From: an uncultured bacterium
GTDB taxonomy: Bacteria; Patescibacteriota; JABMPQ01; CAVVCK01
Assembly: GCA_963746775.1 (NCBI GenBank)
Contig: CAVVCK010000001.1
Span: forward strand, 275,050-339,049
DNA: 64,000 nucleotides
Direction of reading: 5' to 3'
Position numbers and translations under genes: made by a program. The first letter of the stretch is position 1. Every line of letters starts with the position of its first letter. Shown one piece after another: positions 1,148 through 45,510 of this stretch. The notes under the pieces were generated by a model. The model worked only from the letters and a program-made list of their open reading frames with translations. It made no database searches and was not told the origin of the DNA.

Positions 1148-1182
1148 TGTCGCCTCTAACAGCGACCTGCCGAAGAGGCATG
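1148..1182. repeat. Imperfect hairpin element gcctct-N-agaggc. It is related to the hairpin nested at 12405-12433.
   Basis: cgcctctaacagcgacctgccgaagaggc here versus gcctctgacggtaactcgccgttagaggc at 12405-12433. Confidence 0.4.
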
Positions 1183-1253: not shown

Positions 1254-3890
1254 TTAGCTAACCACTTCAAAATGACTCCCCTCCTCATCCTTCGTAACTT
1301 CTATCCTCGACTGAAACATATCTTTTAAGCTCTGAATATGCGTAATAATTAGAATCTTTTTAAAATCATCCTTAATAGAATTAATAGCATCTATGATATA
1401 CTCCTGACCAATACTATCCTGAGTACCAAAACCTTCGTCAATTACTAAAAGCTGCAATTTAGCTCCAGATCGTTTGGCTAAAAGTTTTGATAGAGCAATG
1501 CGAATAGCAAAATTAATACGAAAAGCTTCCCCGCCCGAAAACATTTCATAATCTCTATTGCCCTGTTCATCGATTATCTGTATGTCTAATGTTTCCTGCA
1601 AGGCTCCATCTGTTTTCTTTTCTCTCTGCGTTAAAAATTTAACCTCCATACAACCATCAGTCATTTTGGATAATAATTTATTAGCTTCTTCTTCTATTTC
1701 GGGAATAGCTGATTCAATAATCATCGCCTGAATACCGGTTTTGCTAAAAGCTTGAGCTAATTCATTATAAATTGAACTCTCTGTACTCGCTTTTTTTAAT
1801 TTTTTCTTTCTATCTTTTAATTCCGTCTCTTGCGATTTTAGTCTGTCTAATTTTTCTTTAACAGCTCCGTATTCTGATTGGATGCTGGATATTTGCATTC
1901 TTAATTCTTGTAATTCCTTGTTTTCTTCAATTAATTTAGACATTATAGAATCCAAGTTTTTAACTTCAATTATTAATTTTTCTCGCTTTGTCCTACTTTC
2001 TTCCAATAGCTTTTTCTTCTTTTCTCTGTCATTTTTATTTTTCTCTAAATATTCCTTATTACCTTTTTCTTGCTCGAGCGCCAAAGTTAAATCATTGTGT
2101 AACTTATCGTAAATCATTAATTTGTTAATCTGTACTTCTATATTTTTATGTTTATTTTCATTATAGATTAGTTTTTTCAACTCATTTTCAACTCTATCTA
2201 ATTCTTTGACACTTTCTAAATCAAAATTTCCTTTCTCCATTTCCTGCACTAAATTTTTATTTTTCTCTTTTAAATTTTTTAAATCTTTTTCTTTTATCAC
2301 TAACTCCTCTAAAGATTTTTCTAAATTATAGAACTTTCTTTCTTCCTCTTTCTGCTTAATAAGTTTCTGTTCTAATTCTTTTATTTCATTTTGTAATTCT
2401 AAAATTTTATTATCATAAATTTTTTCTTTTTCATCTAATTTTTTATACTCCTCTCTTCTATTACTTATTTCCTTATCTAAATCTAATAAAACTTTTTCTT
2501 TATGCTCATCACCTAATTTTTGATTGCAAGTAGGACAAGTGCCTTTTAGTTTTTTGATTGTTTCTATTTTTTGTCTTAGTTCTAAACCCAGAGCTTGAAT
2601 TTGTGATTTCTGTGTTCGAAGTTCTGTTTTCTTTTCACTGCCCGACTGCACTCTTTTAATATTTTCCTCTTTCTTTCCTTCTAATTTTTTAAATTCTGCT
2701 AATTTATTTTGAGATTCTTTTAATTCTTTTTTTGTTTTATTTTTATTTTTTACATCTTCCTCATATTCTTTTATTTTTTCTAAAATATTAGCCTGCTCTA
2801 TTTCAATTTTCTTTTTGCTATCAGAAATTTTATTGTTTAATTGATTTTTTTGCGATTCTAGAGAAAATTGCTTTATGCGTACTTTAGTTAAACGATCATT
2901 TTCTAATTTTAATTCTTGCAGTTCCCTATACCCTCTTTTAATTTCATTTCCCTTAGAAATTATTTCTTTTATTTTTTGAAATTTTTGTTCTTTCTCTTCA
3001 AATTCATTTTTTAAATTTTCAATTTCACTTTCTAATTCATCAATTCTAAAAGTTAAATCTTGAGTTTCTTTTTTCTTTATTTCTAAATTATTTCTTTTTG
3101 AAGTTAAATCTTCTACCTCTTTTTCTTTGGCTTCAATCTCCACTTGTGCCTTATCTAAAATTATTTTTATTTTCTTCTCCTCTTCTTCAAAATTCTCCTT
3201 TGAATCTAATTCTTCTGATAAACTCTCCAGTAACTGCTCTGAGCTTTCTTTCTCTATATCACGGCTGCGGCGTAATTCTTTGGCTCGCTCTTGCAATTGG
3301 TCGTAATACGATAGCCCCAAGATATCTGCCAAAATTGCTTTGCGCTCAATTGGTTTCTTAATAGTAAATTCATCAGCGTGACCTTGTCGCAGAAAAGCAG
3401 AATTTACAAAAGTATCATAATCCATACGTAAAATTTCAATGACCCTGTCTTGCGTCTCCGCTTTAGAATGTTCTGATACAGATCGCCAATTATCATTATC
3501 TATCTCTAACAACTGATTTTCTCCTGATCCCGTTCCTTCCGCCTCATCGGCGGACTTCGTCGCGATCATAAAATCAAAACTGCCTGAAGTAGCAAACCCA
3601 CCTTTCTTCTTTTTCTTCTTAATTCTTTTTCTAATCACTCTGTATCTCGAGCCTTCTAATTCAAATTCAAAATCAACCCACATCTCCTCGGTCCCTAATT
3701 TAATTAGATCATCGTCAGATTTAGCTCTGGATTTACCCCATAGTGCCCAAGTAACTGATTCCAGCAAAGTAGATTTACCTACTCCATTATTGCCACTAAG
3801 ACAAGCCAAATCTAACCCTCTAAAATCAAGAGGTTCTACTTGCTCACCATAAGACATGAAGTTGTGAAGTTGTAATTTGATTGGTAGCAT
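1254..3890 (-). CDS. sbcC: SbcC/Rad50-family DNA repair ATPase.
   Basis: N-terminal Walker A (GNNGVGKST), a very long coiled coil with a central CPTC zinc hook, and C-terminal signature/Walker B (LLVIDEGFGTQD). It is directly followed by sbcD. Confidence 0.85.
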   Translation of the reverse strand: MLPIKLQLHNFMSYGEQVEPLDFRGLDLACLSGNNGVGKSTLLESVTWALWGKSRAKSDDDLIKLGTEEMWVDFEFELEGSRYRVIRKRIKKKKKKGGFATSGSFDFMIATKSADEAEGTGSGENQLLEIDNDNWRSVSEHSKAETQDRVIEILRMDYDTFVNSAFLRQGHADEFTIKKPIERKAILADILGLSYYDQLQERAKELRRSRDIEKESSEQLLESLSEELDSKENFEEEEKKIKIILDKAQVEIEAKEKEVEDLTSKRNNLEIKKKETQDLTFRIDELESEIENLKNEFEEKEQKFQKIKEIISKGNEIKRGYRELQELKLENDRLTKVRIKQFSLESQKNQLNNKISDSKKKIEIEQANILEKIKEYEEDVKNKNKTKKELKESQNKLAEFKKLEGKKEENIKRVQSGSEKKTELRTQKSQIQALGLELRQKIETIKKLKGTCPTCNQKLGDEHKEKVLLDLDKEISNRREEYKKLDEKEKIYDNKILELQNEIKELEQKLIKQKEEERKFYNLEKSLEELVIKEKDLKNLKEKNKNLVQEMEKGNFDLESVKELDRVENELKKLIYNENKHKNIEVQINKLMIYDKLHNDLTLALEQEKGNKEYLEKNKNDREKKKKLLEESRTKREKLIIEVKNLDSIMSKLIEENKELQELRMQISSIQSEYGAVKEKLDRLKSQETELKDRKKKLKKASTESSIYNELAQAFSKTGIQAMIIESAIPEIEEEANKLLSKMTDGCMEVKFLTQREKKTDGALQETLDIQIIDEQGNRDYEMFSGGEAFRINFAIRIALSKLLAKRSGAKLQLLVIDEGFGTQDSIGQEYIIDAINSIKDDFKKILIITHIQSLKDMFQSRIEVTKDEEGSHFEVVS

Positions 3891-3999: not shown

Positions 4000-5256
4000 T
4001 TATTCTTCTTCCATCATTTTTTCAACATATTTCTTCAAAAGCTCAACACGTTGTCCATCAATCCCCTTAGCCTTCCCATATTCTCCCAAAGCATCTTTGA
4101 CTGACATCCCTTCTACATTTTCCAATAAATTTTCTCTCTCAGTTTTTTCTGTATCTTTAATTATTCCTGCTATAAAATTAGCCTCACTTAAAACTTGCCT
4201 TATCTCTCCATCATGAATGTTAGTTATCATATTCTCGGGTAATTTAATTTTCACTTTTACTACTACATCTTTTAAATCATATTTTTTTATTGCCTCTATA
4301 ATTTTCTTATTAGGCTCTAGATCACTTTCTTTTATATCAACCTTTATAGTTAAAAATCTTCGAGAAGGAGTCTCAATAAATTTATAATCAGTCTTCTGTG
4401 TATCCTCATCTATATTTATCTCTACAAATCCTTTTTCTTCCTTTTCCTCTCCAAAATCAACTCGCTCAATACTGCCAGAATAAATCACTGGCGGATTCTC
4501 TGATAGAACTTGGTGCCTATGCAAATGTCCCAGCGCTACATAATTAAAAGGCTTAGCTCCTATGATATTTAGAGGAAGTAGAATATCTGTTCCTATATAT
4601 GTCTTTTGCTCTCCTCCGAAAGTAGCCCCAGCTACCGTGCCATGAGCAATTAAAACTGCCGGATTATCATTAGAAGTTTTCTCTTTCAAATTATCTATAA
4701 AAGCAATTGTCTCTCTGGACATCATTTCGTATGCCTCGGTAATAGTTTTACCTTTATATTTTTCACCTTGTAAAAATTCACTCTTAGGAATCCAAGGTAG
4801 AGTGGCTATTTGAAATTTCTTTTTATTGCTTTGATTATCATCATTAAATTCCCATTTATTATTTTCACTTTTAATAAAATTCAAAACTTCCGGCTGACGA
4901 GATACATAAACATTTTCTACTCCTAATGTTTTATAGATCTCTAACGTATCAGCTTTCTTGAAAGCATTAGGTAAATCATGATTACCAATTACTAAAATTG
5001 TATTAATACCACTTGAGGCTACTTTCTTAATTCTCTTAGCAAATTCTCTTTGATAGGTAGGAGATGGATCACGAGTCTTAAAAGCATCGCCGGCAAATAA
5101 AAAGAAATCAACTTTCTGCTCTAAGGCATAATCAACACAAAAATCCAAGCACTTCAAAAAATCAGTCAGCCTGGAATGAAGACCGGTTTTCTTATCTACT
5201 CGGCCGTAATTTTCCATGCCGAGATGGATATCGGCTATGTGGATTAATTTTATCAT
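4000..5256 (-). CDS. sbcD: SbcD/Mre11-family nuclease.
   Basis: Calcineurin-like phosphoesterase motifs (IHIADIHLG, GNHD, GHLH). It sits immediately upstream of sbcC on the same strand. Confidence 0.88.
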   Translation of the reverse strand: MIKLIHIADIHLGMENYGRVDKKTGLHSRLTDFLKCLDFCVDYALEQKVDFFLFAGDAFKTRDPSPTYQREFAKRIKKVASSGINTILVIGNHDLPNAFKKADTLEIYKTLGVENVYVSRQPEVLNFIKSENNKWEFNDDNQSNKKKFQIATLPWIPKSEFLQGEKYKGKTITEAYEMMSRETIAFIDNLKEKTSNDNPAVLIAHGTVAGATFGGEQKTYIGTDILLPLNIIGAKPFNYVALGHLHRHQVLSENPPVIYSGSIERVDFGEEKEEKGFVEINIDEDTQKTDYKFIETPSRRFLTIKVDIKESDLEPNKKIIEAIKKYDLKDVVVKVKIKLPENMITNIHDGEIRQVLSEANFIAGIIKDTEKTERENLLENVEGMSVKDALGEYGKAKGIDGQRVELLKKYVEKMMEEE

Positions 5257-5672: not shown

Positions 5673-5702
5673 TAGAAGTTAAAATTAAAAACATTTTACA
5701 AT

Positions 5703-5766
5703 GGAGCCGTAGCTTAGCTGGTTTAAAGCGATCCGATGTTACATCGGATAGATCGTGAGTTCAATC
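5703..5766 (+). pseudogene. Degenerate tRNA-Asp-like copy 1. The 5' acceptor and D arm match tRNA-Asp, the anticodon arm is replaced by a perfect 8-bp hairpin, and the T arm is decayed.
   Basis: ggagccgtagcttagctggtttaaagcg is identical to the first 28 nt of the tRNA-Asp at 6102. It is followed by atccgatg-tta-catcggat and then agatcgtgagttcaatc, a decayed form of agatcgtgggttcgaatcc. Confidence 0.55.
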
Positions 5767-5769
5767 AAA

Positions 5770-6042
5770 ATGAAAATGAAAAATGGTTATGTTTATATTT
5801 TAAAACGCTCTAACGATACCTATTATATTGGCAGTACTAAAAATATTAAAGATAGAATAAATAGACACAAATCTGGTAGAGTTAAATCTACAAAAAATTT
5901 ATTACCTATAATACTAGTTTTTTATCAAGAGTTTGATACATTATTAAAAGCTAGAAGAATTGAATATAAATTAAAAAAATTAAAAAGTAGAAAAATTATA
6001 GAAAAAATTATTAAAGACAATATCATTACAATGGAGCCGTAG
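5770..6042 (+). CDS. Small stand-alone GIY-YIG nuclease-domain protein (UPF0213/YhbQ-like). The track starts it at GTG 5755; ATG 5770 is more likely.
   Basis: GYVYILKRSNDTYYIGSTKNIKDRINRHKSG...E matches the GIY-YIG core (GxYxYIL, YIGxT, R..xH, distal E). It is about 90 aa, as in YhbQ-type proteins. Confidence 0.75.
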   Translation: MKMKNGYVYILKRSNDTYYIGSTKNIKDRINRHKSGRVKSTKNLLPIILVFYQEFDTLLKARRIEYKLKKLKSRKIIEKIIKDNIITMEP

Positions 6043-6093
6043 TTTAATAGTTTAAAGCGGTCCGATGTCCATCGGACAGATTGTGAATTAAAT
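6033..6093 (+). pseudogene. Degenerate tRNA-Asp-like copy 2.
   Basis: ggagccgtag + tttaatagtttaaagcg + hairpin gtccgatg..catcggac + agattgtgaattaaat. Relative to copy 1 the hairpin carries compensatory a:t to g:c changes. Confidence 0.5.
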
Positions 6094-6101
6094 ATTATAG
6101 T

Positions 6102-6176
6102 GGAGCCGTAGCTTAGCTGGTTTAAAGCGCCTGCCTGTCACGCAGGAGATCGTGGGTTCGAATCCCATCGGTTCCG
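6102..6176 (+). tRNA. tRNA-Asp (GUC).
   Basis: Acceptor ggagccg/cggttcc, anticodon loop cuGUCac, T arm gtgggttcgaatcccat, and discriminator G. No CCA is encoded. Confidence 0.85.
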
Positions 6177-6188
6177 TATTTTTAGATT

Positions 6189-6353: not shown

Positions 6354-9300
6354 ATGAAAAAATTTAACAAAATCAAATTAGGAATTATTTTTGGGATTTT
6401 TTTATTAGTTTGTTCGTTTGGTTATTCTGCTAATGCTATGACAGATGAAGAAAAACAAGAATTAATAGAAGAAATTGGAGCAAGGTGCGAACAAGAACTC
6501 CGCGATGGTTGTCAGAAAGTTCTTGAGGACTTGCATATAGAAATTGAAGGTCCTATAGACTTTGAAGACCCCTATATCAGACATCTATGTTTTAACGCCA
6601 TAGATTCACAGGCCTGCTTTGATAAATATTGGATACCAAAACAAACCCCGGAAGAAACTTCAGACGAATGTGGAAACAGTACATGTGACGAGGGAGAAAG
6701 TTGTTCCAGTTGTCTTTCTGATTGCCCCTGTAGTTCAGAAAAAGTATGTCAAACAAGTGATAGTAATGCGGATACCAATGGTTGTATTGTATCAGCAATG
6801 GATTTAACAGTTTCCACCGATAAAAAAACTTACTCTCCCAAAGAGACAGTGATTATCCAAGGTAGCATATCGGATACAGAAGGTGGATTAGATAGTGCTG
6901 TTGTAGCTCTGGAAATAAGCAGCGACATACCATATTCAGCCACCGCTTCAGCCACTGCCGACTCAGCTGGTAATTATCGCCTCGAATTCCCCATTCCCCC
7001 AGACATCACCCAGGCTATATTTACGGTTTCGGCAACAGCGTCTTATTCCGGCTATCCTGATATAAGCAAAAGTACCAACTTCACAGTGGGAGAAATTGGC
7101 CTACAGCTGGAAAAGAATGCCGTAACCGGAAAACCATTTATTGGCACTGCCGCAGATGGAACCAGCTCTCTTGGTATTTCTATTTCTCTGCCGGAGTGTA
7201 ACGAGGGGTGTAGTAATGTAAAAATGAGTCAACCGAATATTGGTAAACTTGAAGGAGATGCTCTAGATACCATAAGCAATGTTAAACTAGATTCTACTGG
7301 AACAGCAGAGATTACCTATTATCCGCCAGATTATCTTACAAAAGATCAACTTACCCAAAATTTAGATATTCATCAATCAGGTTCTAAAGCCTGGGCGACT
7401 CAAGTTCCCTTAATTTTAACTTACACAAATGCCAGTGGACAAGAAGAAAAGATAGAATCTGAAATTCTTGTCTACCGTCCCCCGGTAATGCTGGTACATG
7501 GTTTTCTCGGCGCTACAACTACCTGGAACAAGATGTCCACCTATTTAAGAGGGGAGAAATTCGATACCTACCTGGGTAATTATGGCACTACTAATCAGTC
7601 TATTGAAGGATTATCCTTAATTTTAAAACAAGACATACAAAAACAAAAAAATGATTATGCTAATGCTGATATCAAGCTGACAAAAGTAGATGTAGTCGGA
7701 CATAGCATGGGAGGTTTAATTGCCCGTTATTATTCTCATGGTCTAGCTAATTACGAAGGTGATGTAAAAAAAATAATAATGGTTGGAACACCAAATCATG
7801 GCATTTCTTGGACCAAGAAAATAACCGGCAGTATCGGTGCCAGCTGGTACCAGACACACCAACTTCCGGCCGAGCAACTTTATTCCAAAAGTTCATTTAT
7901 AAAAACACTTAACAGCGGTGAGAAAAATGGCACTCATCTCAATCCTGATATACAATATGGTAATATATATGGGTTTCCCGATGACTGGATAGTCAACTCA
8001 GCCTCAGCTTATCTAAACGGTGTGGCCAGTGTAACTGAGTCTGATGTAAAACACTCTCCTGATATACCTTATGTTCCAAATGTAGCCATTACCGAGTATT
8101 CAAATACATGGGAGCAAGCAAAAAGCTGGCTAACCAGTGATATTTGGCGACCACAATTAAAAGATTCCCATATAGAAGTCTATAAATACCAGGGAGATGT
8201 CTACTTAGACAATACTAAGTTAACATCTTCTCCTACAAAATTTGATTCCTGGCAGAGCTTGCGAACTGGCCCAAACTCAAAGGCGACTATCCATCTAACA
8301 ATAGATAATCTTCCTTGGGGAGTTATATTTTTAGATCCGAATAGTGAAATTTTTCTGGGTTACCTCTCTCCCCAACTGGTGGAAGTTCGTCTCTGGCAAG
8401 GAAACGCTACCTTCAGGAGCAAGCAGGACGGTCACTTCACCGTACCCGTAAATATTAAGAAGTCTGAAAATGGTGAATGGTGGAAGTACAGCCCCCAGGC
8501 CGTAGTCACCGGACGAAATACAGAATTTACTGTTACCGCCGGAGAAAATATAGCAGTTCATTCCCTGGAAGGCGAGCTTGTTGTGGATACTCCTAATGCT
8601 ACTAAAGAAGGAACCATCCTAGCCGCTAACAAATCTGTAGCCATTAATGGGGAAGAAGTAGTCGCCATCAACCCTGTCTCAAAAGACGATTTCTGGTGGT
8701 CAACTGAAAATGACGACTTTTTAAATTCTACATCAACGGACAGCTGGCTTGATGAATTAATAAATATTGGCCAAGGTATAAAAACCAACCTGACAGCATC
8801 CATTACTTTCATTATCGCTATTATTTCATTGCTATTCTTTACCTTCTTCGCTGTTCTCGAATTTGCCCGGAAAAAAATTGGGATAGGAATATTAATGCTT
8901 GCCTTAGGACTTATTTCATTTTGTATATTTGCTGGATTAACTTGGTTTTTCGCTTCAGCTGATGTTAGTCCAGAAGAAACAAATTCAAACCATGGTGAAA
9001 CAAATAATGAGGAGACGGCAATTAATGAAAATAATAATTTAAATACTGACTCAGCCTCAACTAATACCAACACATCAGCCAAAACAGATTCCAACCCTAC
9101 TGAATCTACCAACACTAATACGACAACCACTACAGATACCACTCCAGTTGAAAAATCATCAACCGTAACAGTAGCTGACTATGGCTTTACTTTGGAAGTT
9201 GGCGAAGATCATGCCGGCAAAATTAGGCCATTATCCATTAGTCCAGGTAGTTTTGCAGAAGCATCTTATATTTTTTGCTATGATACTAAAGAAGAAAATG

Positions 9301-11559: not shown

Positions 11560-12285
11560 TTACAAATTCAATCCCTGCTTTGCCGTCCTTTTTTTGCTAT
11601 TTTTATAATCATTAATAATTTCTCCATCTTTAATATCTATTATCCGATCAGTAAATTCAGCTACCTCCTGTTCATGGGTTATTAAAACAATACTTTTTTT
11701 CTTCTCTCTATTTAATTTTTCAAAAGTAGCCATTACAATATCACCAGTTTTACTATCTAAATTACCAGTTGGCTCATCGGCTAATAATAAATCAGGATTA
11801 TTAACTAAAGCACGGGCAATTGCCACTCTTTGCATTTGTCCACCTGATAATTGATTAGATAAATGGTTCCAAATTTTTTCATCTTCTAAGCCAACATCTA
11901 TCAAGGCTTTCTTAGCCATTTCTTCCCTCTGGATTATATTCTTGGGTTCACCAGTATAAACAAAAGGAAGCATAACGTTCTTTAATACCGTAGCCCTTTT
12001 TAATAAATTAAAACTCTGAAAAACAAAACCAATACTTTTTAATCTTATATTTGCTAAATCATTATCGGTTAGTTTAGATACATCTTTATTTTTAAGAAAA
12101 TATTCTCCAGAAGTTGGTGTATCTAGCATACCAATAATATTCATAAGAGTAGATTTACCCGAACCAGACGGTCCCATAATAGCTACAAACTCACCTTCAT
12201 TGATTTTAATATTAATCCCTTTCAAAACCTTTGTTTCAATCTCTCCAATCTTATAATTTTTAATAATATCTTTTAATTCAATCAT
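11560..12285 (-). CDS. ABC transporter ATP-binding protein (MacB/LolD-type).
   Basis: Walker [10 protein letters not shown], signature [15 protein letters not shown], Walker B LLLADEPT, and H-loop. Confidence 0.9.
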
Positions 12286-12320
12286 TTTTTATCTATATTA
12301 GTGTAAATTACGAATTAAGT

Positions 12321-12470
12321 AATTATCCGCTATATCCACTATAATCCGCTTATCCGCAATACTACAAAAAGCAGATTTGGCAGATTTATGCAGTTGCCTC
12401 TGACGGTAACTCGCCGTTAGAGGCGAGATAAGCGGAAAAATATATAAAGAATTTCATAATTCGCATTATT
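12321..12470. repeat. Dispersed intergenic repeat, copy A. It has four phased ~9-bp atccgc units, then a conserved tail, with a nested gcctct...agaggc hairpin.
   Basis: Shares the atccgc/atccac/atccgc/atccgc phasing (9, 10, 8 bp) and the tail ...gcggattt...atgcag...ataagcgRaaaaaYatataa..atttYataattcgcatt with 27811-27930. Confidence 0.65.
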
Positions 12471-12472
12471 AA

Positions 12473-13975
12473 CTAATCTCTACCCCTTGCTCCTCCGCCC
12501 AATGGTATTAAAGACCCGCCGCCGCTGTTCGTACTAGTTGAAGAATTAGTAGCTTGACTGCTGCTAGTAGCATCAGTACTACTTAGAACTATCACATCTC
12601 CTTCTTGCAAACCGCTATTTATTTCAATATTCACATCATCAGTAAGTCCAATTTCTACTTTGACTAATTTAGTACTAGTATTATCCGAGAAAGCATTACG
12701 CATATCTACATTTTTATCCGTAACCAATTCTATATAACTACCGTCCATTTGTTCTTTAACAGCTGAGCTTGGAATTAATAGCACATTTTCTTTTTTATTA
12801 GTAATTATTTCCGCATTAACCGTCATACCATTTTTTATTCTTTCATCATAACCATCAAAATTAATAGTTACATTATTATAGACTACACCCTGGTCTTGTG
12901 TACCAATTAGATCTATTTTAGTAACTGTGCCAGTCATTTTTAAATCTTCCAGAGCATCAAAGGTCAAATTAGCCTTTTGATCTTTCTGAATATTCGGAAC
13001 ATCAACTTCATTAATAGCCACTACTGTATTTTTATTTTTAGAAGTCAAAATAGCCAAAGCACTAGAGCTAGCTGAAGAGCTGGAAGCACTACTGGAGCTG
13101 GTAGAAGAAGATCCTCCCCCGCCTGATATCTTTTCCCCTTCAGTTATATTCAAAGAAGCAATGATACCATCTTTGGGAGCAATAATGGTATAATCTTTTT
13201 TTTGTAAAATTAAATCATTTAATTTACTTTGTTTATCTTGAATTGAAATTTCTTGCAAATTAACTTCCGTTGCATCCGCTCCTTCTTTTGTTTTTTCTAA
13301 AGCTTTCTCCGCTTCATTTATCTTAGCTTCTGCTTCAGAAATTTTAAGAGGATGATTCAAATTATATTCTCCTATTTGACGATCTGCAGCTGATATTTGT
13401 GATTGATAAGAAGATTTTTTGCTTGCGTAATCCGGAGAATTTGTGTCAAGTTTATTTAAATTATCCTGAGCTATCGCTCTGTCTTCTTTAGCTGCTGCTA
13501 ACTGATTTTTTTGAGCTAATTCTAGTTCTGATAAATTATTTTTAGCTGTTTGCAAATCATTTTCTGATTTTTTAATATCATAATCACTAGGCTGCTCTTG
13601 CAATTTTTTTAAAGAAAGTTGAGCCGATTGTACAGCTAATTGCGCCTGATAAATTTGATTATCTAAATCAGAAGTATTAATTTGAGCAATTAAATCACCC
13701 GCTTTTACTTCTTGCCCTTCAGTTACTGCTACTTTAGTAACTTCTCCTGACACTTCAGCAGTAATATCACTCTGATCCGTATCTCCTACTTGACCAGTAG
13801 CTGAGACTACAGTTTCTATATTTCCTTTTGTTACTTTTCCTAGCTCATAACTTGTTCCAGTTGATTTCTTAGGTAATAATTCTTTATAAACAAAATAGCC
13901 GGCCAATACTGCCGCCACTAAAATCATAATTGTCGTTAGCTTGTGATTTTTCACAAATTCTCTTATTTTTTTCAT
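12473..13975 (-). CDS. macA: Periplasmic adaptor / membrane fusion protein (HlyD/MacA family) with Ser-rich linkers.
   Basis: N-terminal TM anchor, long coiled-coil hairpin region, and a beta-barrel C-terminus. It is the first gene of the operon with the ABC ATPase and permease. Confidence 0.75.
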   Translation of the reverse strand: MKKIREFVKNHKLTTIMILVAAVLAGYFVYKELLPKKSTGTSYELGKVTKGNIETVVSATGQVGDTDQSDITAEVSGEVTKVAVTEGQEVKAGDLIAQINTSDLDNQIYQAQLAVQSAQLSLKKLQEQPSDYDIKKSENDLQTAKNNLSELELAQKNQLAAAKEDRAIAQDNLNKLDTNSPDYASKKSSYQSQISAADRQIGEYNLNHPLKISEAEAKINEAEKALEKTKEGADATEVNLQEISIQDKQSKLNDLILQKKDYTIIAPKDGIIASLNITEGEKISGGGGSSSTSSSSASSSSASSSALAILTSKNKNTVVAINEVDVPNIQKDQKANLTFDALEDLKMTGTVTKIDLIGTQDQGVVYNNVTINFDGYDERIKNGMTVNAEIITNKKENVLLIPSSAVKEQMDGSYIELVTDKNVDMRNAFSDNTSTKLVKVEIGLTDDVNIEINSGLQEGDVIVLSSTDATSSSQATNSSTSTNSGGGSLIPLGGGARGRD

Positions 13976-14898: not shown

Positions 14899-15606
14899 AT
14901 GCCTGAAAAAAAATCAAATAGTTTCCTTTTCGGCCTAACGACCGGAGTAGCTATTGTTGCTCTCCTTGGCTTCCTCGCTACTACCATTGCTTCTTCACTG
15001 AAAATTGGAAAAAGTCAAGCCCAACCAGCTCAAGTAGCAGATACAAATAATAACAATGATTCCGTTCCAACTAATCCTACCCCAACTGCTAAAATTGATT
15101 TTGAAATAAAAGATACTGATCATATCCGAGGTAACAAAAATGCGCCTATTACTATCTTAGAGTATTCAGATTTTCAATGTCCTTACTGCGCCAGATTTCA
15201 TGAAACACTAACTCAAGTTATGAAAAATTACGATGGCAAAGTTAAATGGGTTTTTAGACAATTTCCTCTATCTGAACTTCATCCCTTTGCCGAAACTGCT
15301 GCCGAGGCTTCAGAATGTGCTAACGACCAAAATAAATTCTGGGAATATACTGATGAATTATATGCCAATCAATCATCCTTTAGTGCGGACTATTTCAAAA
15401 AAGCAGCCAAGAATATTGGACTTAATACCAGTAAATTTAATACTTGCCTAGATTCCGGAAAATATAAAGATAAAGTGGCCGCTGATTATGCTGAAGGCGA
15501 TGGCTACGGAGTATCGGGTACACCAGGCAGTTTCTTAAATGGAGAGGAATTAGGTGGTGCTGTGCCTTATGAAAGTTTAAAGGCTAAAATTGATAAGTTA
15601 TTATAA
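14899..15606 (+). CDS. DsbA/BdbD-like thiol:disulfide oxidoreductase, membrane anchored.
   Basis: N-terminal TM helix, thioredoxin fold with a CPYC active site (YSDFQCPYCARFH), and a cis-Pro region. Confidence 0.8.
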   Translation: MPEKKSNSFLFGLTTGVAIVALLGFLATTIASSLKIGKSQAQPAQVADTNNNNDSVPTNPTPTAKIDFEIKDTDHIRGNKNAPITILEYSDFQCPYCARFHETLTQVMKNYDGKVKWVFRQFPLSELHPFAETAAEASECANDQNKFWEYTDELYANQSSFSADYFKKAAKNIGLNTSKFNTCLDSGKYKDKVAADYAEGDGYGVSGTPGSFLNGEELGGAVPYESLKAKIDKLL

Positions 15607-15620
15607 ATTTTCAATTTTAG

Positions 15621-15688
15621 AAAAATTATTTACCTGGCTTTAGCCAGCTCTTATAACTCAAAGACCTCCTAATTTAGGAGGTCTTTTT
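15621..15688 (+). terminator. 31-bp repeat unit (copy 1) followed by a rho-independent terminator.
   Basis: aaaaattatttacctggctttagccagctct (identical copy at 16471-16501), then agacctcctaatttaggaggtct + TTTTT. Confidence 0.6.
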
Positions 15689-15728: not shown

Positions 15729-16238
15729 ATGAGAAGAGTATTAATTATTGGCTGCTGCGGATCCGGTAAATCAACATTTGCCAAAAAACTAAATAAAATA
15801 CTAAAACTAGAATTAATACATCTAGATAAATTATATTGGAAACCAGGCTGGCAGAGATCATCACAAGTAGAATGGACAAAAATTGTCCAAGAAATTATAG
15901 AAAAAGATAGTTGGATTATGGATGGAAATTATGACAGCACTCTTGATATGAGAATAGTAAAAGCTGATACTGTCGTCTTTTTTAATTTTCCTAGAATTAC
16001 TTGTCTATATAATACTTTCAAAAGAGCCTTGAGAGGAAAATTATTTAAAGTTGTCAGAAGCGATATTAAAGAAGGCTGTGGAGAAAAGCTAGATTGGACT
16101 TTTCTAAAATGGATCTGGAAATTTAATAAAGAAGTTCGCCTTAATTATTTAGAAAAATTATATAAATTAAAGAAAGAAAAGGAAATTATAATTTTACATA
16201 ATTACAAAGAGTCTGATGATTTTTTAGAAAAAAAGTAG
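15729..16238 (+). CDS. Topology-modulation-protein-like P-loop NTPase (adenylate-kinase-like fold).
   Basis: MRRVLIIGCCGSGKSTFAKKL...HLDKLYWKPGWQ matches the FlaR/topology modulation protein family N-terminus. Confidence 0.65.
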   Translation: MRRVLIIGCCGSGKSTFAKKLNKILKLELIHLDKLYWKPGWQRSSQVEWTKIVQEIIEKDSWIMDGNYDSTLDMRIVKADTVVFFNFPRITCLYNTFKRALRGKLFKVVRSDIKEGCGEKLDWTFLKWIWKFNKEVRLNYLEKLYKLKKEKEIIILHNYKESDDFLEKK

Positions 16239-16383
16239 GTTGGGTTGAGTACTCGAAACCCAACGATTAATGTAATTTATAATCACTCTAGATATTCATC
16301 CATAATAATTAAGAATACATTTATCTCTTCTTGTTTATTTTATCTAAAGGCACTTTAATCCTTTTTTTTATATTAAATTCGAT

Positions 16384-16466
16384 CGTTCCAGATATTTATC
16401 TGGAACGTAATAATTCAAGGATATATATCCTTGAAAACATTCCGTTGCGGATATATATCCGCAACG
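16384..16466. repeat. Array of three perfect palindromes with a shared gatatatatc core and covarying flanks, spaced about 30 bp apart.
   Basis: cgttccagatatttatctggaacg (16384-16407), tcaaggatatatatccttga (16415-16434), cgttgcggatatatatccgcaacg (16443-16466). A degenerate fourth lies at about 16562-16584 (gctccagataagtatctgtaac). Confidence 0.6.
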
Positions 16467-16470
16467 ATCA

Positions 16471-16543
16471 AAAAATTATTTACCTGGCTTTAGCCAGCTC
16501 TGTGTAAACACAAAAGAACTTCTAAATCTAGAAGTTCTTTTTT
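16471..16543 (+). terminator. 31-bp repeat unit (copy 2) followed by a second terminator hairpin.
   Basis: aaaaattatttacctggctttagccagctct, then agaacttctaaatctagaagttct + TTTTTT. Confidence 0.55.
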
Positions 16544-16688: not shown

Positions 16689-16961
16689 ATGACAAAATCC
16701 AAAGAAAAAACTCTTATCAATTTCAAAAAGGCAAAAAGCTCATTAGCAAAAATTGAAACAATGGTCAAAGAAGACAAATACTGCATCGATATTATGCAAC
16801 AAAACCTAGCTGTCATCGGTCTATTAAAATCCGCTCATCAAATGTTGATGGAAGGACACTTAAATTCCTGCTTCAAAAATGCTATGGCCGCCAAAAATGA
16901 AAAAAGAAAACAAGAAATGATTGATGAAATTTTAAGACTATCCAAAATAGCAAATAAATAA
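16689..16961 (+). CDS. csoR: CsoR/RcnR-family metal-sensing transcriptional repressor (probably copper-sensing).
   Basis: 90 aa helical protein with the family signature ...YCIDIMQQ...H(Q)...LMEGHLNSC (the Cys-His-Cys metal ligand triad positions are conserved). It sits upstream of copA. Confidence 0.75.
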   Translation: MTKSKEKTLINFKKAKSSLAKIETMVKEDKYCIDIMQQNLAVIGLLKSAHQMLMEGHLNSCFKNAMAAKNEKRKQEMIDEILRLSKIANK

Positions 16962-16965
16962 AATA

Positions 16966-17304
16966 ATGAAAAAATTATTTATAGCTATAATTAGTTTTAC
17001 TTCTATCACTCTAATTAGTTTTTCCATTTTTAGCTTTATCGCCCTAGGTCAAAATAATTTTGAAAAATTATCACCCCAAGAAATGTATGACCAAATAATT
17101 CAAGAAAGAAATTTGGCTATTGAAAAAGCAAAAGAACGCGGCGATTATAAATGCTGTATTTCTCCTCCCTGCACTATGTGTTATATGGAAGGCAACAAAT
17201 GGAACTACAACACTCCCGGTACCTGCGCTTGTGATGAATTTATCGCCCGCGGCGAAGATCCCTGCCCGCAATGCAAAAATAAAGCTTGTGAAGAAAACTC
17301 TTAA
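16966..17304 (+). CDS. Cys-rich membrane-anchored protein, putative metal binding.
   Basis: N-terminal TM helix and 10 Cys in the last 50 residues (CCISPPCTMCY, CACDEF, CPQCKNKAC). It lies inside the copper cluster. Confidence 0.45.
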   Translation: MKKLFIAIISFTSITLISFSIFSFIALGQNNFEKLSPQEMYDQIIQERNLAIEKAKERGDYKCCISPPCTMCYMEGNKWNYNTPGTCACDEFIARGEDPCPQCKNKACEENS

Positions 17305-17349
17305 TTAATTATCAATATCAAAAAATAAACGAAGAATTATTATAATTAA

Positions 17350-18846
17350 ATGCTCAAAAAAACAGAAATAAAAATCGAAGGCATGCACTGCCAAAGCTGC
17401 AAGACCTTGATTGAAACAGAAATAGATATCCTCGAAGGAGTTAAAGATATTAAAGTTGATTATGCTTCCGGCCAAGGATTTGTAGAATTTGATGACCAAA
17501 AAATATCTTTGGATAAAATCTATAACGCTATAGAAAAATTAAATTATAAAGTAGTTAAAAATACAGAGAAAGTTAAAAAAGATGTTAAAGAAAATAATTT
17601 ATATAAAAATATTGCTATCATTTCTGTTCTTATTCTCCTTTTTGTAGTTGGTTATTTCTTAATTAAATATTTAGGACTTCTGGAAATCCTCTCCCAATTA
17701 AACGAGAAGAAAGTAAGCTATTGGTTAATTTTTATTATAGGACTTCTAGCTAGTTTTCATTGTATTGGTATGTGCGGTGGCTTAGTTGTTACCTATACCG
17801 CCTCCAGCCAAAAAAAAGATAAGTGTAAGGACTGCCATAATAAATACACGCCTCATTGGCAGTACAATCTGGGAAGGCTTATATCATATACCACAATTGG
17901 AGCAATCTTAGGCGGTTTTGGATCATTTTTCGGTATTAATCCCCTTTTCACGGGTATTATAACTTTAGTAGCCGGAGTTTTTATGACCTTAATGGGATTA
18001 TCACTGCTTACTGATTTCAAATGGCTTAAAAAAGTAAAACTTAAAACACCACCCTTTATTGCTAAATTTCTATTTAGTCAAAAACACAGTCAAAAACCAA
18101 AAGGTCCCTTTATAATCGGCCTGCTTAATGGCTTTATGCCCTGCGGACCCCTGCAAGCTATGCAATTATACGCCCTAGCCTCAGGCAATATTGTAAGCGG
18201 AGCCTTATCTATGGGAATTTATGCCTTAGGAACCATACCTTTAATGTTTTTCTTTGGCAGTTTTATATCCTTTATCAGCCGGGAACGCATTAAACAAATA
18301 ATGAAAATATCCGGATTAATCGTAATAATATTAGGGGTTTTTATGTTTAATCGCGGACTTACTAATTTTGGACTAGGTTTTAGAGGCTTAGTTAGTAATG
18401 ATCAAACAAGCCAAACAGAATTTCAAGTCGCTGGCAATATTAATGAATATCAAGTTATAAACATGGATTTAACTTACCGAGGCTATGAACCTAATGTTCT
18501 TTATATTAAGAAAGGCATACCTGTTCGCTGGATAATAAATGTTAAACAAATGACCGGCTGTACTAATTCAATTATCTTACATGGGTATGATATAGAAAAG
18601 GATTTAAAAGAAGGAGAAAATATTATTGAATTTATACCAAAAGAAACAGGTGAAATAAAATTTTCCTGCTGGATGCAAATGGTCTGGGGTAAGTTTATTG
18701 TCACCGAGGGAGATGTAAATCCTAACCAGAGTCAAATAGAACTAGAATCTGAATCTCTGTCTGAAGGATCATGTGGCGGTGATGGATCTTGTGGAGGAAG
18801 CTGCGGGCAATCTTCTTGTGGATGTGGTACAATAAAAAGTAATTAA
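17350..18846 (+). CDS. HMA-domain protein fused to a polytopic Cys-motif membrane domain and a C-terminal cupredoxin-like domain.
   Basis: N-terminal heavy-metal-associated fold with GMHCQSC. The TM domain has HCIGMCGG and MPCGP motifs reminiscent of DsbD_2/CcdA-like metal transporters. The C-terminal beta domain is cupredoxin-like (GCTNSIILHGYD...FSCWMQM), followed by a Cys/Gly tail SCGGDGSCGGSCGQSSCGCG. Confidence 0.65.
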   Translation: MLKKTEIKIEGMHCQSCKTLIETEIDILEGVKDIKVDYASGQGFVEFDDQKISLDKIYNAIEKLNYKVVKNTEKVKKDVKENNLYKNIAIISVLILLFVVGYFLIKYLGLLEILSQLNEKKVSYWLIFIIGLLASFHCIGMCGGLVVTYTASSQKKDKCKDCHNKYTPHWQYNLGRLISYTTIGAILGGFGSFFGINPLFTGIITLVAGVFMTLMGLSLLTDFKWLKKVKLKTPPFIAKFLFSQKHSQKPKGPFIIGLLNGFMPCGPLQAMQLYALASGNIVSGALSMGIYALGTIPLMFFFGSFISFISRERIKQIMKISGLIVIILGVFMFNRGLTNFGLGFRGLVSNDQTSQTEFQVAGNINEYQVINMDLTYRGYEPNVLYIKKGIPVRWIINVKQMTGCTNSIILHGYDIEKDLKEGENIIEFIPKETGEIKFSCWMQMVWGKFIVTEGDVNPNQSQIELESESLSEGSCGGDGSCGGSCGQSSCGCGTIKSN

Positions 18847-18855
18847 CAATAAAAT

Positions 18856-19224
18856 ATGCAAATCATCGGAATCATTTTAATTATTATAGTAATAATATTG
18901 TACTTACTCTGGCTATGGTACACCAAAAATCAAACTGCCACTTCTGCCAAGCAAGAAGAAAATGTACAGGTATTTAATATTTTAGTTAAAGGTGTCTACT
19001 CGCCTAATGTTATTAAAGCTAAATTAGGCAAATTAATTAGAATAAATTTTACCAGAAAAGAATCAACTGATTGCTCTCGTTATGTAAACTTCCCGGATTT
19101 TAAAATCAGAAAAGAATTACCCGAGGGAAAAGAAACTTCCCTAGAAATTATGCCGGAAAAAACAGGCGCATTTCCATTTAATTGCGATATGAATATGTAT
19201 CAAGGAAAATTAATCGTAGAGTAG
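18856..19224 (+). CDS. Membrane-anchored cupredoxin-like domain protein.
   Basis: N-terminal TM helix. The beta-rich domain carries a Cys/Met/Met/Met cluster (FNCDMNMYQG) in the position of a Cu site. Confidence 0.5.
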   Translation: MQIIGIILIIIVIILYLLWLWYTKNQTATSAKQEENVQVFNILVKGVYSPNVIKAKLGKLIRINFTRKESTDCSRYVNFPDFKIRKELPEGKETSLEIMPEKTGAFPFNCDMNMYQGKLIVE

Positions 19225-19239
19225 CAAGTTTGTATTAAT

Positions 19240-19290
19240 ATATCCGCCCAATCCGCAACATCCGCCTATCTGCACAAAGTTATCTAAAAC
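19240..19290 (+). promoter_or_regulatory. Partial copy of the atccgc phased-repeat element, upstream of copA.
   Basis: atatccgcccaatccgcaacatccgcc shares atccgc units with 12321-12357 and 27819-27851. Confidence 0.4.
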
Positions 19291-19351
19291 AAGTGAACCC
19301 TAATTAATTTAATTCAAACTTTTAAATTATCTCTTAATGTAAATCAAACAC

Positions 19352-21559
19352 ATGAAAAAAGAATTTAATATAAAAATGATGCACTGCGCTTCTTGCGCTC
19401 TCAGCATCGAGAATAAACTTAACAAAACTCCAGGCGTAAAACACGCCAATGTTAATTTTGCTACGGAAAAAGCTTCTGTAGATTTTGAAGGAGATGACCA
19501 AAAAATAATCAAGGCTGTCAAAGATTTAGGTTATAAAGCGGAAACAATAGATGATGCCACCTCTGCTATGCCACAACACGACCACAATCATAACGAATCA
19601 CCTAGGAATAAAGAGGTAAAAAAAGAAAGAAATCTATTTATCCTAAGCCTGGTTTTATCTCTTCCTATTCTGGTACTTAGTATGATTCTAATGGATAAAT
19701 CTTTATTAAGTAGAATTATTCAGTTACTTCTAGCTTCTATCATACAATTCTATATTGGTTTCAGATTCTACAGAGGAACATATTATGCTCTCAAAAATAA
19801 AGCAGCTAATATGGATACCTTAGTAGCGCTTGGTACCTCGGCTGCTTATTTTTATAGTCTGGCTACTATCTTTTTTATAGCAGGAGATGTCTTTTTTGAA
19901 ACATCTGCTCTTCTTATCACTTTTATAATCTTAGGAAAATATTTGGAAGCAAGAGCCAAAGGCAAAACATCAGAAGCTATAGAAAAATTACTGGAACTAC
20001 AGGCAAAAAAAGCTAGGGTGGAAAGAAGTGGCCAGGAAATAGAAATACCCATAGAAGAATTAAAGATTGGGGATATTGTTATTGTTCGTCCTGGAGAAAA
20101 AGTACCCACCGACGGAATAATAATTGAAGGATATTCCAGTATCGATGAATCTATGATCACAGGCGAAAGTATTCCGGTTGAGAAAAAAGAGACTGATAAA
20201 GTCATCGGCGCAACCTTAAATAAAACCGGCAGCTTTAAATTCATAACAGAAAAAATTGGCAAAGATACTATGCTTTCTCAAATTGTAAAAATTGTCAACG
20301 AAGCGCAAAGCTCTAAAGCGCCAATTCAAAAATTCGCTGACATGGTATCAAGTTATTTTGTTCCTACCGTTATTGCTATTGCCCTAATAACTTTTATTAG
20401 TTGGTACTTTTTAGTAGGCTCCTTTTTTGTATCTTCTCTACTAGCCTTTACCGCTGTTTTGGTTATTGCCTGCCCCTGTGCTCTGGGTTTGGCTACACCA
20501 ACTGCTATTATGGTTGGCACGGGGATGGGTGCTGAGAAAGGAGTCTTAGTTAAAAGCGGTAAAGCCCTCGAGATTGCCAATAAAATTCAAGCAATAATAT
20601 TAGATAAAACCGGAACTATAACTAAAGGCAGACCAGAAGTTACGGACGTAATTCAAATTTCAAATAATAAAATCCAAATCACAAACAAATTACAGAATCC
20701 AAATTCTAAAAATAATATTTTGCAGATAACCGCTTCCCTTGAAAACAAATCTGAGCACCCCCTAGCCGAGGCGATTATTAAAAAAGCTAAATCAGAAAAT
20801 ATAGAATTCCTTAATGTACAGAACTTTGAAGCTATAGCCGGCCATGGAGTTCAGGGTACAATTTCTAATCAACAAATTTTAATTGGTACAGAAATGTTAA
20901 TGGATAAATTTAATATTAATATCAGCCAAGAGATTAAGGATAAAAAAATAAACTTAGAAAACGAGGGGAAAACAGTAATGATAATGACGCTAGATAATAA
21001 CATTGCCGGTTTAATCGCCGTAGCCGATACAATTAAAGAAACATCAAAAAAAGCAATCAGAATGCTTAAAGAGATGGGCCTAAGAACCATTATGATAACA
21101 GGTGATAATCAAAGAACAGCCCAGGCTGTAGCTAAACAAATTGGAATTGATGAAGTACTATCAGAGGTTCTACCAGAAGATAAAGCTAAAGAAATCAAAA
21201 AGCTTCAAGAAAATAATCAAAAAGTAGGAATGGTCGGAGATGGCATCAATGATGCTCCTGCCCTAGCTCAATCAGACCTAGGAATTGCCATGGGAGCAGG
21301 TACTGACATTGCTATTGAGACCGGTGATATAGTTTTGATCAAAAACAATTTACAAGATGTAGTGAGAGCTATCAAACTTAGCAAAGCTACTATGAACAAA
21401 ATAAAACAAAATATGTTCTGGGCACTGTTTTATAATAGTATTGGTATACCTATTGCCGCACTAGGATTATTACGCGCAGAATTTGCCGGTCTTGCTATGG
21501 CACTGAGCAGTGTATCAGTTGTTACTAATTCTTTATTGTTAAAAAGAAGGAAAATATAA
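19352..21559 (+). CDS. copA: Cu(I)-exporting P1B-type ATPase.
   Basis: N-terminal HMA domain with MHCASCA, TM CPC motif (ACPCALG), DKTGTIT phosphorylation site, [10 protein letters not shown] hinge, and an HP motif region. Confidence 0.9.
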
Positions 21560-25326: not shown

Positions 25327-26646
25327 AAGTTCACGTGCTGCTTGTCTATCATCCCAAGCAATACATTTACCATTTTTAATAGCCATTACTGGATCCGAGC
25401 CTTTGCCAGCTAGCAAAACCACATCGTTTGGTTTTGCCAGTAGCAAGGCTTTTTTTATTGCTTCTCTTCTGTCTATAATTTTAAAATAATCCAATCCTTC
25501 TATTTTATCTTTTTTTGCCAAACCTTTAATCATCTCATCAGCTATTTCATTTGGATTATCATCATAAGGATCATCAGTGGTAATTACGCTAAATTTACAA
25601 TATTTTGCAAGTATCTCCCCCATTACTGGTCTCCGCCAGCTATCTCTGCCTCCGCCAGTGGGACCTGAGACTGCTATAATATTATTTTTAAATTCTTCTT
25701 TTATAAATAAATTTTTAATATTTTTTAAAACCTCTTCTAAACATTTAGGTTCATAAGCATAATCTACAATTACCTTAAATTTTTGCCCCTCTTCAATTAA
25801 TTCCATCCTGCCTGGCATACCAGGAAAATTTGCCAAATACTGACTAATCTCTTTTAGAGATAAACCTAAATATTTACCCAAAGCTACAGCTGGCAGAGCA
25901 TTATATATATTAAAATCACCTATTTGTTTTAAACTAAAACTAATATCTTTTATTCTCCAAGAAATTCCCTCTTTCCCAGATTGCAAACTAGAAGCAATAA
26001 TATCTGCCCCAGTTTTTAAACCATAGGTAATTTTTTTATCTGCCGCGAACCCCAGAAAATAATCAGCATACTTATCATCTTTATTTGCAATAATAACTTT
26101 CTCATTATTTTGATTTCTAATTTTTATGTTTTTATGTTCTTGAGTTTTAATGTTCTCGTGCTTCAACGATTTAAACAATTCTGCTTTAGCTTTTTTGTAA
26201 TTTTCAAAACCTCCATGAGATTCAATATGCTCAGGAGTCAGATTTAAAAAAACAGCTATATCATAATTTATACCTGCATGCCTATATTGTTTTATACCTT
26301 CTGATGATGTTTCCACAATGGCATATTCACATCCCGCTAAATACATATCCTTAAGTAGTTTTTGCAATTTAAACCTGCCCAACATTGTCATTTTATATTT
26401 ATTGACCCATTCCTTCTGATGAATTCTAAAATTAGCCGTCGAGGTCATACCACATTTGTAACCCGCCTGCTCAATTAAATGCCATAATATATTACAGGTT
26501 GTAGACTTACCTTTGGTGCCTGTTACACCAATAACAATCATCTTCTCCGAGGGCTGACCATAATAAATAGCAGCTAGTATAGCTAAACTTTTATAATAAA
26601 AATTAAGCATTGATTTTGGAACAAATTTTCTAATTAAGCTTTTCAT
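25306..26646 (-). CDS. Mur ligase family protein (MurE/MurT-like).
   Basis: P-loop VIGVTGTKGKSTT, DIAVFLNLTPEHIESHGGFENYKKAK, and C-terminal LLAGKGSD...WDDRQAAREL. Confidence 0.65.
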   Translation of the reverse strand: MKSLIRKFVPKSMLNFYYKSLAILAAIYYGQPSEKMIVIGVTGTKGKSTTCNILWHLIEQAGYKCGMTSTANFRIHQKEWVNKYKMTMLGRFKLQKLLKDMYLAGCEYAIVETSSEGIKQYRHAGINYDIAVFLNLTPEHIESHGGFENYKKAKAELFKSLKHENIKTQEHKNIKIRNQNNEKVIIANKDDKYADYFLGFAADKKITYGLKTGADIIASSLQSGKEGISWRIKDISFSLKQIGDFNIYNALPAVALGKYLGLSLKEISQYLANFPGMPGRMELIEEGQKFKVIVDYAYEPKCLEEVLKNIKNLFIKEEFKNNIIAVSGPTGGGRDSWRRPVMGEILAKYCKFSVITTDDPYDDNPNEIADEMIKGLAKKDKIEGLDYFKIIDRREAIKKALLLAKPNDVVLLAGKGSDPVMAIKNGKCIAWDDRQAARELLKEIKK

Positions 26647-27782: not shown

Positions 27783-27810
27783 TTTTTTATATTAATGTGA
27801 ATTGCCCAAA

Positions 27811-27930
27811 TAAACCCAATCCGCAATATCCGCTATAATCCGTTTATCCACAATATTACAATAAGCGGATTTAACAAATTGATGCAGATAAGCGAAAAAA
27901 CATATAAGAAATTTTATAATTCGCATTTCT
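27811..27930. repeat. Dispersed intergenic repeat, copy B. It has the same four phased atccgc units plus the conserved tail, without the nested hairpin.
   Basis: Unit starts at 27819, 27828, 27838 and 27846 (spacing 9, 10, 8), identical phasing to 12325, 12334, 12344 and 12352. The tail gatgcagataagcgaaaaaacatataagaaattttataattcgcatt matches copy A. Confidence 0.65.
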
Positions 27931-27931
27931 A

Positions 27932-38009: not shown

Positions 38010-38035
38010 TTAAAATTTTTTGTGTGAAAGAAATT

Positions 38036-38100: not shown

Positions 38101-38106
38101 ATTTTT

Positions 38107-45507: not shown

Positions 45508-45510
45508 ATA

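Follow-up and report, generated by a model that had tools for sequence, protein, structure and literature searches.

The stretch of DNA that we analyzed (the window; 64 kb, 33% GC) contains two copies of a non-coding element, A and B, each lying wholly between annotated genes. The proteins that best match those of the window bear the names Patescibacteria or Parcubacteria group. Copy A (172 nt) lies between the stop of a HlyD/MacA-like gene (12473-13975, minus strand) and the start of an ABC ATPase gene (11560-12285, minus strand), which is followed by a MacB-type permease gene. Copy B (138 nt) lies between the stop of a HAD hydrolase gene (27932-28660, minus strand) and the start of a Trp/Tyr-type permease gene (26643-27782, minus strand). 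At both sites the minus strand of the element is the sense strand of the flanking genes. The original prediction, made from the letters of the window, had described a shared element of about 100 bp. The element is indeed shared, but its size was underestimated: the similarity spans the whole spacer in both places.

We found that each copy carries an array of four hexamer units of the ATCCGC type with a spacing of 9-10-8, as the original prediction had stated for both intergenic regions. The corresponding pattern, ATCCRCNNNNATCCG, occurred twice in the 64-kb window; the number expected from shuffled sequences was 0.02. A profile HMM built from A and B was run over the same 64 kb (nhmmer). It recovered A (E=1e-57) and B (E=1e-38) as the only full copies, and it gave a weak partial match at 19240-19274. 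The window thus has two full copies, at unrelated junctions 15 kb from each other, and one solo arm, which we call C. The coordinates of the copies and their parts are collected in Table 1.

Table 1. Positions of the element copies, of their parts and of related features (window coordinates, except for the last line)
Feature	Position	Strand	Details and evidence
Element copy A, 172 nt	12298-12469	- (best-folding strand; sense of flanking genes)	Alignment with B, nhmmer, short spacers of relatives, Pfam of neighbours
Element copy B, 138 nt	27792-27929	-	nhmmer E=1e-38; short spacer in L180-L184; gap-free alignment with A minus its hairpin
Array of A	12325-12357	+	ATCCGC, ATCCAC, ATCCGC, ATCCGC, then CAAT; unit starts 12325, 12334, 12344, 12352
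Array of B	27819-27851	+	ATCCGC, ATCCGC, ATCCGT, ATCCAC, then CAAT; unit starts 27819, 27828, 27838, 27846
Inverted partner arm of A	12371-12437	+	GCAGAT 12371, GCAGAT 12380, GCAG/AT (split by hairpin), GCGGAA 12432; sequence and folds
Inverted partner arm of B	27865-27897	+	GCGGAT 27865, ACAAAT 27874, GCAGAT 27884, GCGAAA 27892; sequence and folds
Nested GC-rich hairpin in A, 34 nt, putative second small palindromic repeat	12394-12427	+	Sole gap between A and B; pattern expected 0.02 times
Second copy of the 34-nt hairpin	1149-1181	-	Alone in the spacer between 657-1025 and an SbcC-like gene (1254-3890)
Solo array C	19242-19273	+	Three ATCCGC units, then ATCTGC (19268), spacing 9-9-8; 79-110 nt upstream of copA; without partner arm
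TA flank of A, low side; putative target-site duplication	12296-12297	.	Sequence; 13-nt restored spacer as in L179 and L175
TA flank of A, high side; putative	12470-12471	.	Sequence; restored spacer
TA flank of B, low side; putative	27790-27791	.	Restored spacer TATAAAAAA compared with TATAAATTA in L183 and L184
TA flank of B, high side; putative	27930-27931	.	Immediately follows the HAD gene's TAA stop, sense orientation
In-frame palindromic elements with GCGGAT arrays	1807-1897, 2253-2298, 4045-4120, 6850-6940		In three GT4 genes of L145, a contig of an uncultured CPR bacterium

Copies A and B differ in length by a single insertion. Removing the nested 34-nt hairpin from A leaves 138 nt that align with B from end to end (106/138 identical, 77%), and the hairpin is the only gap between the two. 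The whole 138-nt element is one long imperfect hairpin, with ATCCRC units in one arm and GCRGAT units in the other. Read along the plus strand, it runs from a terminal unit of the GTGAAT/ACGAAT type through four ATCCRC units and CAAT to a loop of ~10 nt, and then through three or four inverted units (GCGGAT, GCAGAT, ACAAAT, GCGAAA) to a terminal ATTCGC. A tail common to A and B had been described as a further shared motif. The tail is real, but it is not a separate motif: its units (GCAGAT, GCGGAT, GCGAAA and the ATTCGC at the terminus) make up the inverted second arm of the palindrome.

The hairpin within copy A had also been noticed, at 29 bp. It is an insertion, as proposed, but its true size is 34 nt, and it splits a GCAG/AT unit of the second arm. 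Copy A was thus hit later by a second repeat. The relative of this hairpin that had been reported near 1148-1182 is present as well, matching the reverse complement of the insert in A at 26 of 32 positions. Judging by these two sequences, the 34-nt hairpins would form a second, REP-sized repeat family.

Array C lies between a cupredoxin gene and copA, within the plus-strand csoR-copA copper cluster, and represents a single arm of an element of the A/B kind. The shorter set of units foreseen 65-110 bp upstream of copA is present, with its four units 79-110 nt upstream of that gene. The array is missing upstream of copA in three relatives (L185, L186 and L187), whose copA upstream spacers are unrelated in sequence. 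The copper-resistance cluster (16689-21559) comprises a CsoR-type repressor, a DsbD-HMA-cupredoxin fusion, a cupredoxin and CopA; it occupies the same place in L185 and is missing from L180. A palindrome just upstream of csoR, tatacctataccataggtacaggttata, may be the csoR operator.

We found that both junctions are empty in related genomes. Between HlyD and the ATPase, the window has a spacer of 187 nt, against 13, 16 and 13 nt in L175, L177 and L179 (ATPase identity 73-81%). Between HAD and the permease it has 149 nt, against 9, 13, 13, 9 and 9 nt in L180-L184 (permease identity 82-87%). Both the gene order and the ends of the flanking proteins are preserved in the relatives. In about 120 kb of DNA from the relatives we found neither the element nor any cluster of at least two units. 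Because the orthologous junctions measure only 9-16 nt in all eight related loci, A and B are shown, at the level of sequence comparison, to be insertions specific to the lineage of the window, made into tight operon-type junctions. The empty junctions support the original suggestion of a MITE-like mobile repeat. They are not what would be seen if ordinary promoter sequence were conserved among related genomes.

The edges of the element point to insertion at TA. In the sense direction, the filled site of A reads TAG-T-TA-element-TA-TAGATAAAAA-ATG and that of B reads TAA-TA-element-TA-TAAAAAA-ATG. When the element and one TA were deleted in silico, the spacers became 13 nt (A) and 9 nt (B), the lengths found in the nearest relatives, and the restored B spacer matched that of L183 and L184 at 7 of 9 positions (TATAAAAAA and TATAAATTA, respectively). 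Insertion at TA with duplication of the TA is likely from these alignments. We put it no higher because TA is common (it is frequent in 33% GC DNA, and the search for it partly guided our choice of element boundaries), the inverted repeats at the ends are weak and the outermost bases differ. The terminal repeats are short and agree at ~9 of 13 positions (TTARTGYRAATT). A motif for them that allowed one mismatch was not enriched in the window (9 matches, 10.9 expected). The outermost two bases are not the same at the two ends, nor in the two copies, a variability that is unusual at transposon tips. A 12-mer near copy C that resembles the terminal repeat (19334-19345) was not above chance and was set aside.

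Taken together, these findings make it probable that A and B are copies of a MITE-like palindromic mobile element, non-coding and non-autonomous, of the Correia/RUP/ERIC/RPE class. The 138-nt element would have moved into two very short, AT-rich spacers, unrelated to each other and each between genes of the same direction, inserting at TA and duplicating it, by analogy with MITEs that are mobilized by IS630/Tc1-mariner enzymes. The mobilizing enzyme would act in trans and may be encoded elsewhere or have been lost. Our leading guess is a TA-duplicating DDE enzyme, with a single-strand hairpin mechanism as the main alternative. The hexamer arrays would be the constrained part of the element, most simply as repeated recognition sites for the mobilizing protein; we infer the constraint from the same spacing at the ends of elements in other CPR lineages (below). 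Since the element lies inside operons in the sense orientation, it is presumably co-transcribed and would form a long stem in the mRNA. Such a stem may change how the mRNA is processed or how strongly the flanking genes are expressed relative to each other, as a side effect and not as the reason for its presence.

Several observations count against the MITE-like reading: the terminal repeats are weak, the tips are variable, there is no transposase gene in the window and only two full copies are found there. We detected no transposase domain in the sizeable open reading frames of the window, and no Y1 or RAYT gene among them either. Likewise, an autonomous relative or parent insertion sequence with matching ends was found neither among the open reading frames of the window nor in viral contigs. 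A phage origin was considered separately and rejected, as two scans of viral contigs gave chance matches inside coding sequence only.

Related arrays occur in other members of the CPR. We scanned genome contigs and metagenome contigs with the four-unit pattern. The genome contigs yielded mostly simple tandem repeats in GC-rich genomes, and the metagenome scan found no further copy of the A/B type of element, though it did find related CPR families. One array family was present in low-GC CPR contigs (Falkowbacteria SI037S2_bin7 and samples Ga0233431, Ga0233437 and Ga0209249), with the consensus aATCCGCAtAATCCGCAAAtaATCCGCAtATCCGCAAT and a spacing of 9-11-8. An array in a Saccharibacteria contig had a spacing of 9-10-8. 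The low-GC CPR arrays lie between genes, in either orientation with respect to them, and their CAAT end abuts the gene boundary. Where they are paired, the 9-11-8 arrays ending in CAAT form the inverted ends of elements of 174-190 bp (L112, L113 and L095). The direction of the arrays differs between the two groups: inward in A and B of the window, with CAAT toward the loop, and outward in the Falkowbacteria-type elements. A simple reading of the arrays as transposase-binding ends therefore does not cover both.

Some related elements lie within genes. The elements of contig L145 end in ATAATGCGGAT...ATTCGCATTAT, and their terminal 11-mer is identical to that of copy A. They are in-frame within three GT4 glycosyltransferase genes, in an inter-domain linker or loop as judged by the Pfam domain limits, and their arrays are translated into peptides such as ...NADLRIKCESADCGYKENQQSASSAYHSH... 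and ...MRMMRIAD.... Solo arms are also found in this contig. A PDDEXK_3 nuclease gene adjoins one solo array there.

We found that the two strands of the element do not fold equally well. The A/B consensus fold of the minus strand, on which the units read GCGGAT, had an energy of -29.9 kcal/mol and 34 pairs. Both copies keep every one of these pairs; there were seven one-sided changes and a single compensatory one, and 13 cells were G-U. For the plus strand the fold reached -9.65 kcal/mol and 18 pairs. Folded singly, the GCGGAT strand reached -38.7 vs -28.8 kcal/mol for its complement in A and -30.4 vs -22.9 kcal/mol in B, and the fold of the sense strand of A had a z-score of -4.4. The GCGGAT strand folded better in 12 of the 15 elements tested (A and B included), whichever strand was the sense strand of the neighbours. 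The advantage could reflect a single-strand DNA or RNA stage, or it could be a mere effect of the strand being rich in G and U. Because it is seen in both gene orientations, selection at the RNA level is not separable from composition.

This asymmetry is not predicted by a model in which double-stranded DNA is cut and pasted, and it suits another kind of element. A strand-specific single-strand hairpin of the REP/REPIN or IS200/IS605-like type, handled by an enzyme for single-stranded DNA, of the Y1 (RAYT-type) or another kind, and flanked by TA only by coincidence, would explain why all wobble positions favour one strand, why the changes between A and B keep pairing on the GCGGAT strand only, and why the terminal inverted repeats are weak. 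All three arrays of the window also have GCGGAT on the G-rich minus strand (negative GC skew throughout), which is presumed to be the leading strand, although three cases prove nothing. We nevertheless consider such an element unlikely. A G-rich strand outfolds its complement by composition alone, the window has neither of the expected genes, and REPs are much shorter and less AT-rich than the element, which has no GTAG-type head. The TA model, moreover, restores the spacer lengths of the relatives at both sites.

An effect on RNA is a second way to account for the fold. The element might be a structured cis-acting RNA, such as an attenuator or a hairpin for processing or stability, that is retained because of what it does to the macAB-like and permease operons, with its spread secondary. 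In this favour, both copies are in the sense orientation within operons, the sense strand folds far better than its complement, no pair is broken between A and B, and MITEs such as Correia and ERIC affect mRNA (PMC2229807). We give this reading only a small chance. The same operons have very short junctions in the relatives, the two host operons are functionally unrelated, and the related CPR elements occur in both orientations and inside coding sequence. The fold itself comes from two sequences, and the program that chose it is also the one that scores it. A search against Rfam found only tRNAs in the window at the gathering score and no family that matches the element; with E values up to 5 there was a single chance-level match (RT-4, 18 bits against a threshold of 73.5 bits). 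A known RNA family was rejected accordingly.

The consensus scans also gave nothing credible by way of promoter or terminator, and both were dropped as candidates. In copy A they predicted no sigma-70-type promoter and no intrinsic terminator. In copy B there was one weak promoter-like match, which overlaps the start codon, with fewer matches than in shuffled sequence and no terminator-like site. The proposal that promoters for the transporter genes reside in the element thus found no backing. The flanking genes are operonic in the relatives, and a promoter of their own would be unnecessary.

It is very improbable that the arrays are sites of a multimeric regulator (a response regulator, or an MraZ-like or DnaA-like protein) that controls the transporter genes found downstream of all three of them. 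The arrangement is suggestive, with four hexamer direct repeats whose spacing is conserved between A and B and similar in other CPR lineages, and one unit of B with its flanks (27843-27851) is a perfect match to TTATCCACA, which we take to be the DnaA box consensus. That box, however, is found in one of eight units; the other seven have G at position 7 or differing flanks. The near-10-bp helical phasing of the original prediction was not borne out either: the spacing averages 9 bp, not 10.5, so the units do not lie on one helical face. There is no promoter nearby, and A/B and C are not oriented alike with respect to the gene that follows them. Arrays of the same kind are translated in-frame inside the L145 genes. 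None of the relatives has such an array at the orthologous position, upstream of copA included, which makes a regulator site hard to maintain. DnaA-box and MraZ-type repeat arrays, for which we took the consensus from general knowledge, were rejected for the same reason: the arrays are insertions that the relatives lack.

The MITE-like reading leaves room for a broader possibility. The same array and spacing are kept across divergent CPR while the rest of the element changes, which points to a conserved protein partner. The GCGGAT/ATCCGC arrays (9-10/11-8) could conceivably be the recognition module of an undescribed, strand-specific mobilization system found throughout the Patescibacteria, an idea that we regard as doubtful. 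If true, such a system would act on hairpins of single-stranded DNA or RNA, with elements at gene junctions and in-frame in genes. It might even extend to other phyla. Because our scans selected for the ATCCGC hexamer and included no control hexamer, that extension is only a lead. A GC-rich Sumerlaeia MAG (15dZY3.bin.32) has a four-unit ATCCGC family of its own, dispersed in more than 12 copies (contigs L012, L039, L042, L045, L046, L051, L055, L059, L065 and L072), and inverted (GCGGATT)n...(AATCCGC)n arrays occur in the GC-rich metagenome contigs L096, L121, L143 and L163.

The window contains other small repeats. A 50-nt direct repeat (15602-15651 and 16452-16501, 82% identical) contains the hairpin CCTGGCTTTAGCCAG, and each repeat is followed by a terminator-like hairpin. 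The two repeats bracket a small AAA_18-type gene (15729-16238) and look like the ends of an inserted segment. Three consecutive perfect palindromes, cgttccagatatttatctggaacg, ttcaaggatatatatccttgaa and cgttgcggatatatatccgcaacg, with the core GATATATATC/AGATATTTATCT, lie at 16380-16470, upstream of the csoR-like gene. The hairpin GTTGGGTTGAGTACTCGAAACCCAAC (16239-16264) is identical in a relative (L185, 7899-7957; L186, 6049-6107), where it lies upstream of copA together with a second hairpin, GTTGGGTT...AACCCAAC; this looks like a third small palindromic family of the lineage. Hairpins built on CCATGGGC/GCCCATGG (38013-38122 and 38682-38734) flank the spacer upstream of queH, and their inverted arms of 53 nt are 72% complementary. 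A heptamer, ATTTAGA, is repeated in tandem ~8 times at 45510-45565, directly upstream of ruvA (44914-45507, minus strand).

Two further regions are repetitive on a different scale. The start of the tRNA-Asp gene (6101-6177) is found three times (5693-5730, 6023-6060 and 6092-6129). The two truncated copies bracket a small open reading frame (5755-6042), and neither ARAGORN nor Rfam calls them tRNA; they may be remnants of integration at the tRNA gene. At 53810-62489, a giant open reading frame of 2275 aa and the following one of 653 aa contain repeats of ~1160 nt with 71-92% identity, which are probably repeated surface-protein domains. The next open reading frame has FG-GAP repeats.

The tiny genomes of Patescibacteria are commonly portrayed as containing little mobile DNA. 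Operon junctions split by a palindromic element, whose relatives are tolerated in-frame in enzymes, would speak for ongoing activity of small elements in this phylum, and the element could serve as a marker for the history of strains and lineages. There is also a lesson for annotation, in that phased repeats of this kind should not be taken as operators or promoters. As a class the element is ordinary; what is unusual is that its arms consist of phased hexamers and that the array is conserved across CPR lineages. A literature search found no published description of palindromic or MITE-like elements in CPR/Patescibacteria.

Among the known systems that we compared, TIGR arrays (TIGR-Tas), which are known in Patescibacteria, consist of ~36-nt tandem units with box C/D motifs and adjoin a tas (Nop-domain) gene (10.64898/2026.09.09.750476). 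We rejected a TIGR array here: the period is 8-10 nt with four units, the box C/D motifs do not match, and no Nop/Tas gene is found among the open reading frames of the window. REP/REPIN sequences (RAYT) are closer, being short extragenic palindromes at gene ends with strand-specific hairpins and lineage persistence. REPs, however, are 20-40 nt long and GC-rich, with a conserved tetranucleotide head and hundreds of copies, whereas the element is 138 nt long and AT-rich, in a window without a RAYT gene. The nested 34-nt hairpin and its second copy are nearer to REPs than the 138-nt element is.

The properties listed for bacterial MITEs include their size, TA ends, long stem-loops and intragenic insertions, and Correia, RUP and ERIC insert at TA with duplication (PMC2229807). 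The RPE of Rickettsia are, like our element, palindromic, 105-146 bp long and found in a reduced genome (PMC2229807). They sit between genes and in-frame in conserved protein genes (PMC2229807), as do the L145 elements in the three GT4 genes, and this RPE-like behaviour is hard to reconcile with an operator or promoter. A and B themselves are intergenic and have no sequence similarity to RPE; the comparison is one of behaviour only. RUP of Streptococcus pneumoniae, which is mobilized by IS630-Spn1, is small (~107 bp) and non-coding like the element; it has short terminal inverted repeats, which are weak in A and B, inserts at TA, as is likely for A and B, and has stops in all frames (PMC2229807). 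RUP differs in having a known parent insertion sequence with matching ends and in lacking hexamer arrays; no parent was found for the element described here.

Correia/NEMIS elements of Neisseria differ from the element in several respects. They have clear terminal inverted repeats of 24-26 bp with one GTGGAT per end, in contrast to weak ends of ~13 bp and arms of four phased hexamers; neither an IHF site nor an outward promoter was found in A or B, and the host phylum is another. The Correia end TATAGTGGATTAA (PMC5039591) has the 10-mer TATAGTGGAT in common with the sense strand of copy A, which we treat as a resemblance only. The likeness in organization goes further. As with the element in this window, for which insertion at TA is likely and co-transcription presumed, Correia/NEMIS elements are non-coding and 100-155 bp long, insert at TA and have TA at both ends, lie mostly in intergenic positions next to genes with which they are co-transcribed, form one long stem-loop, and have length variants that arise through an internal block (PMC2229807).
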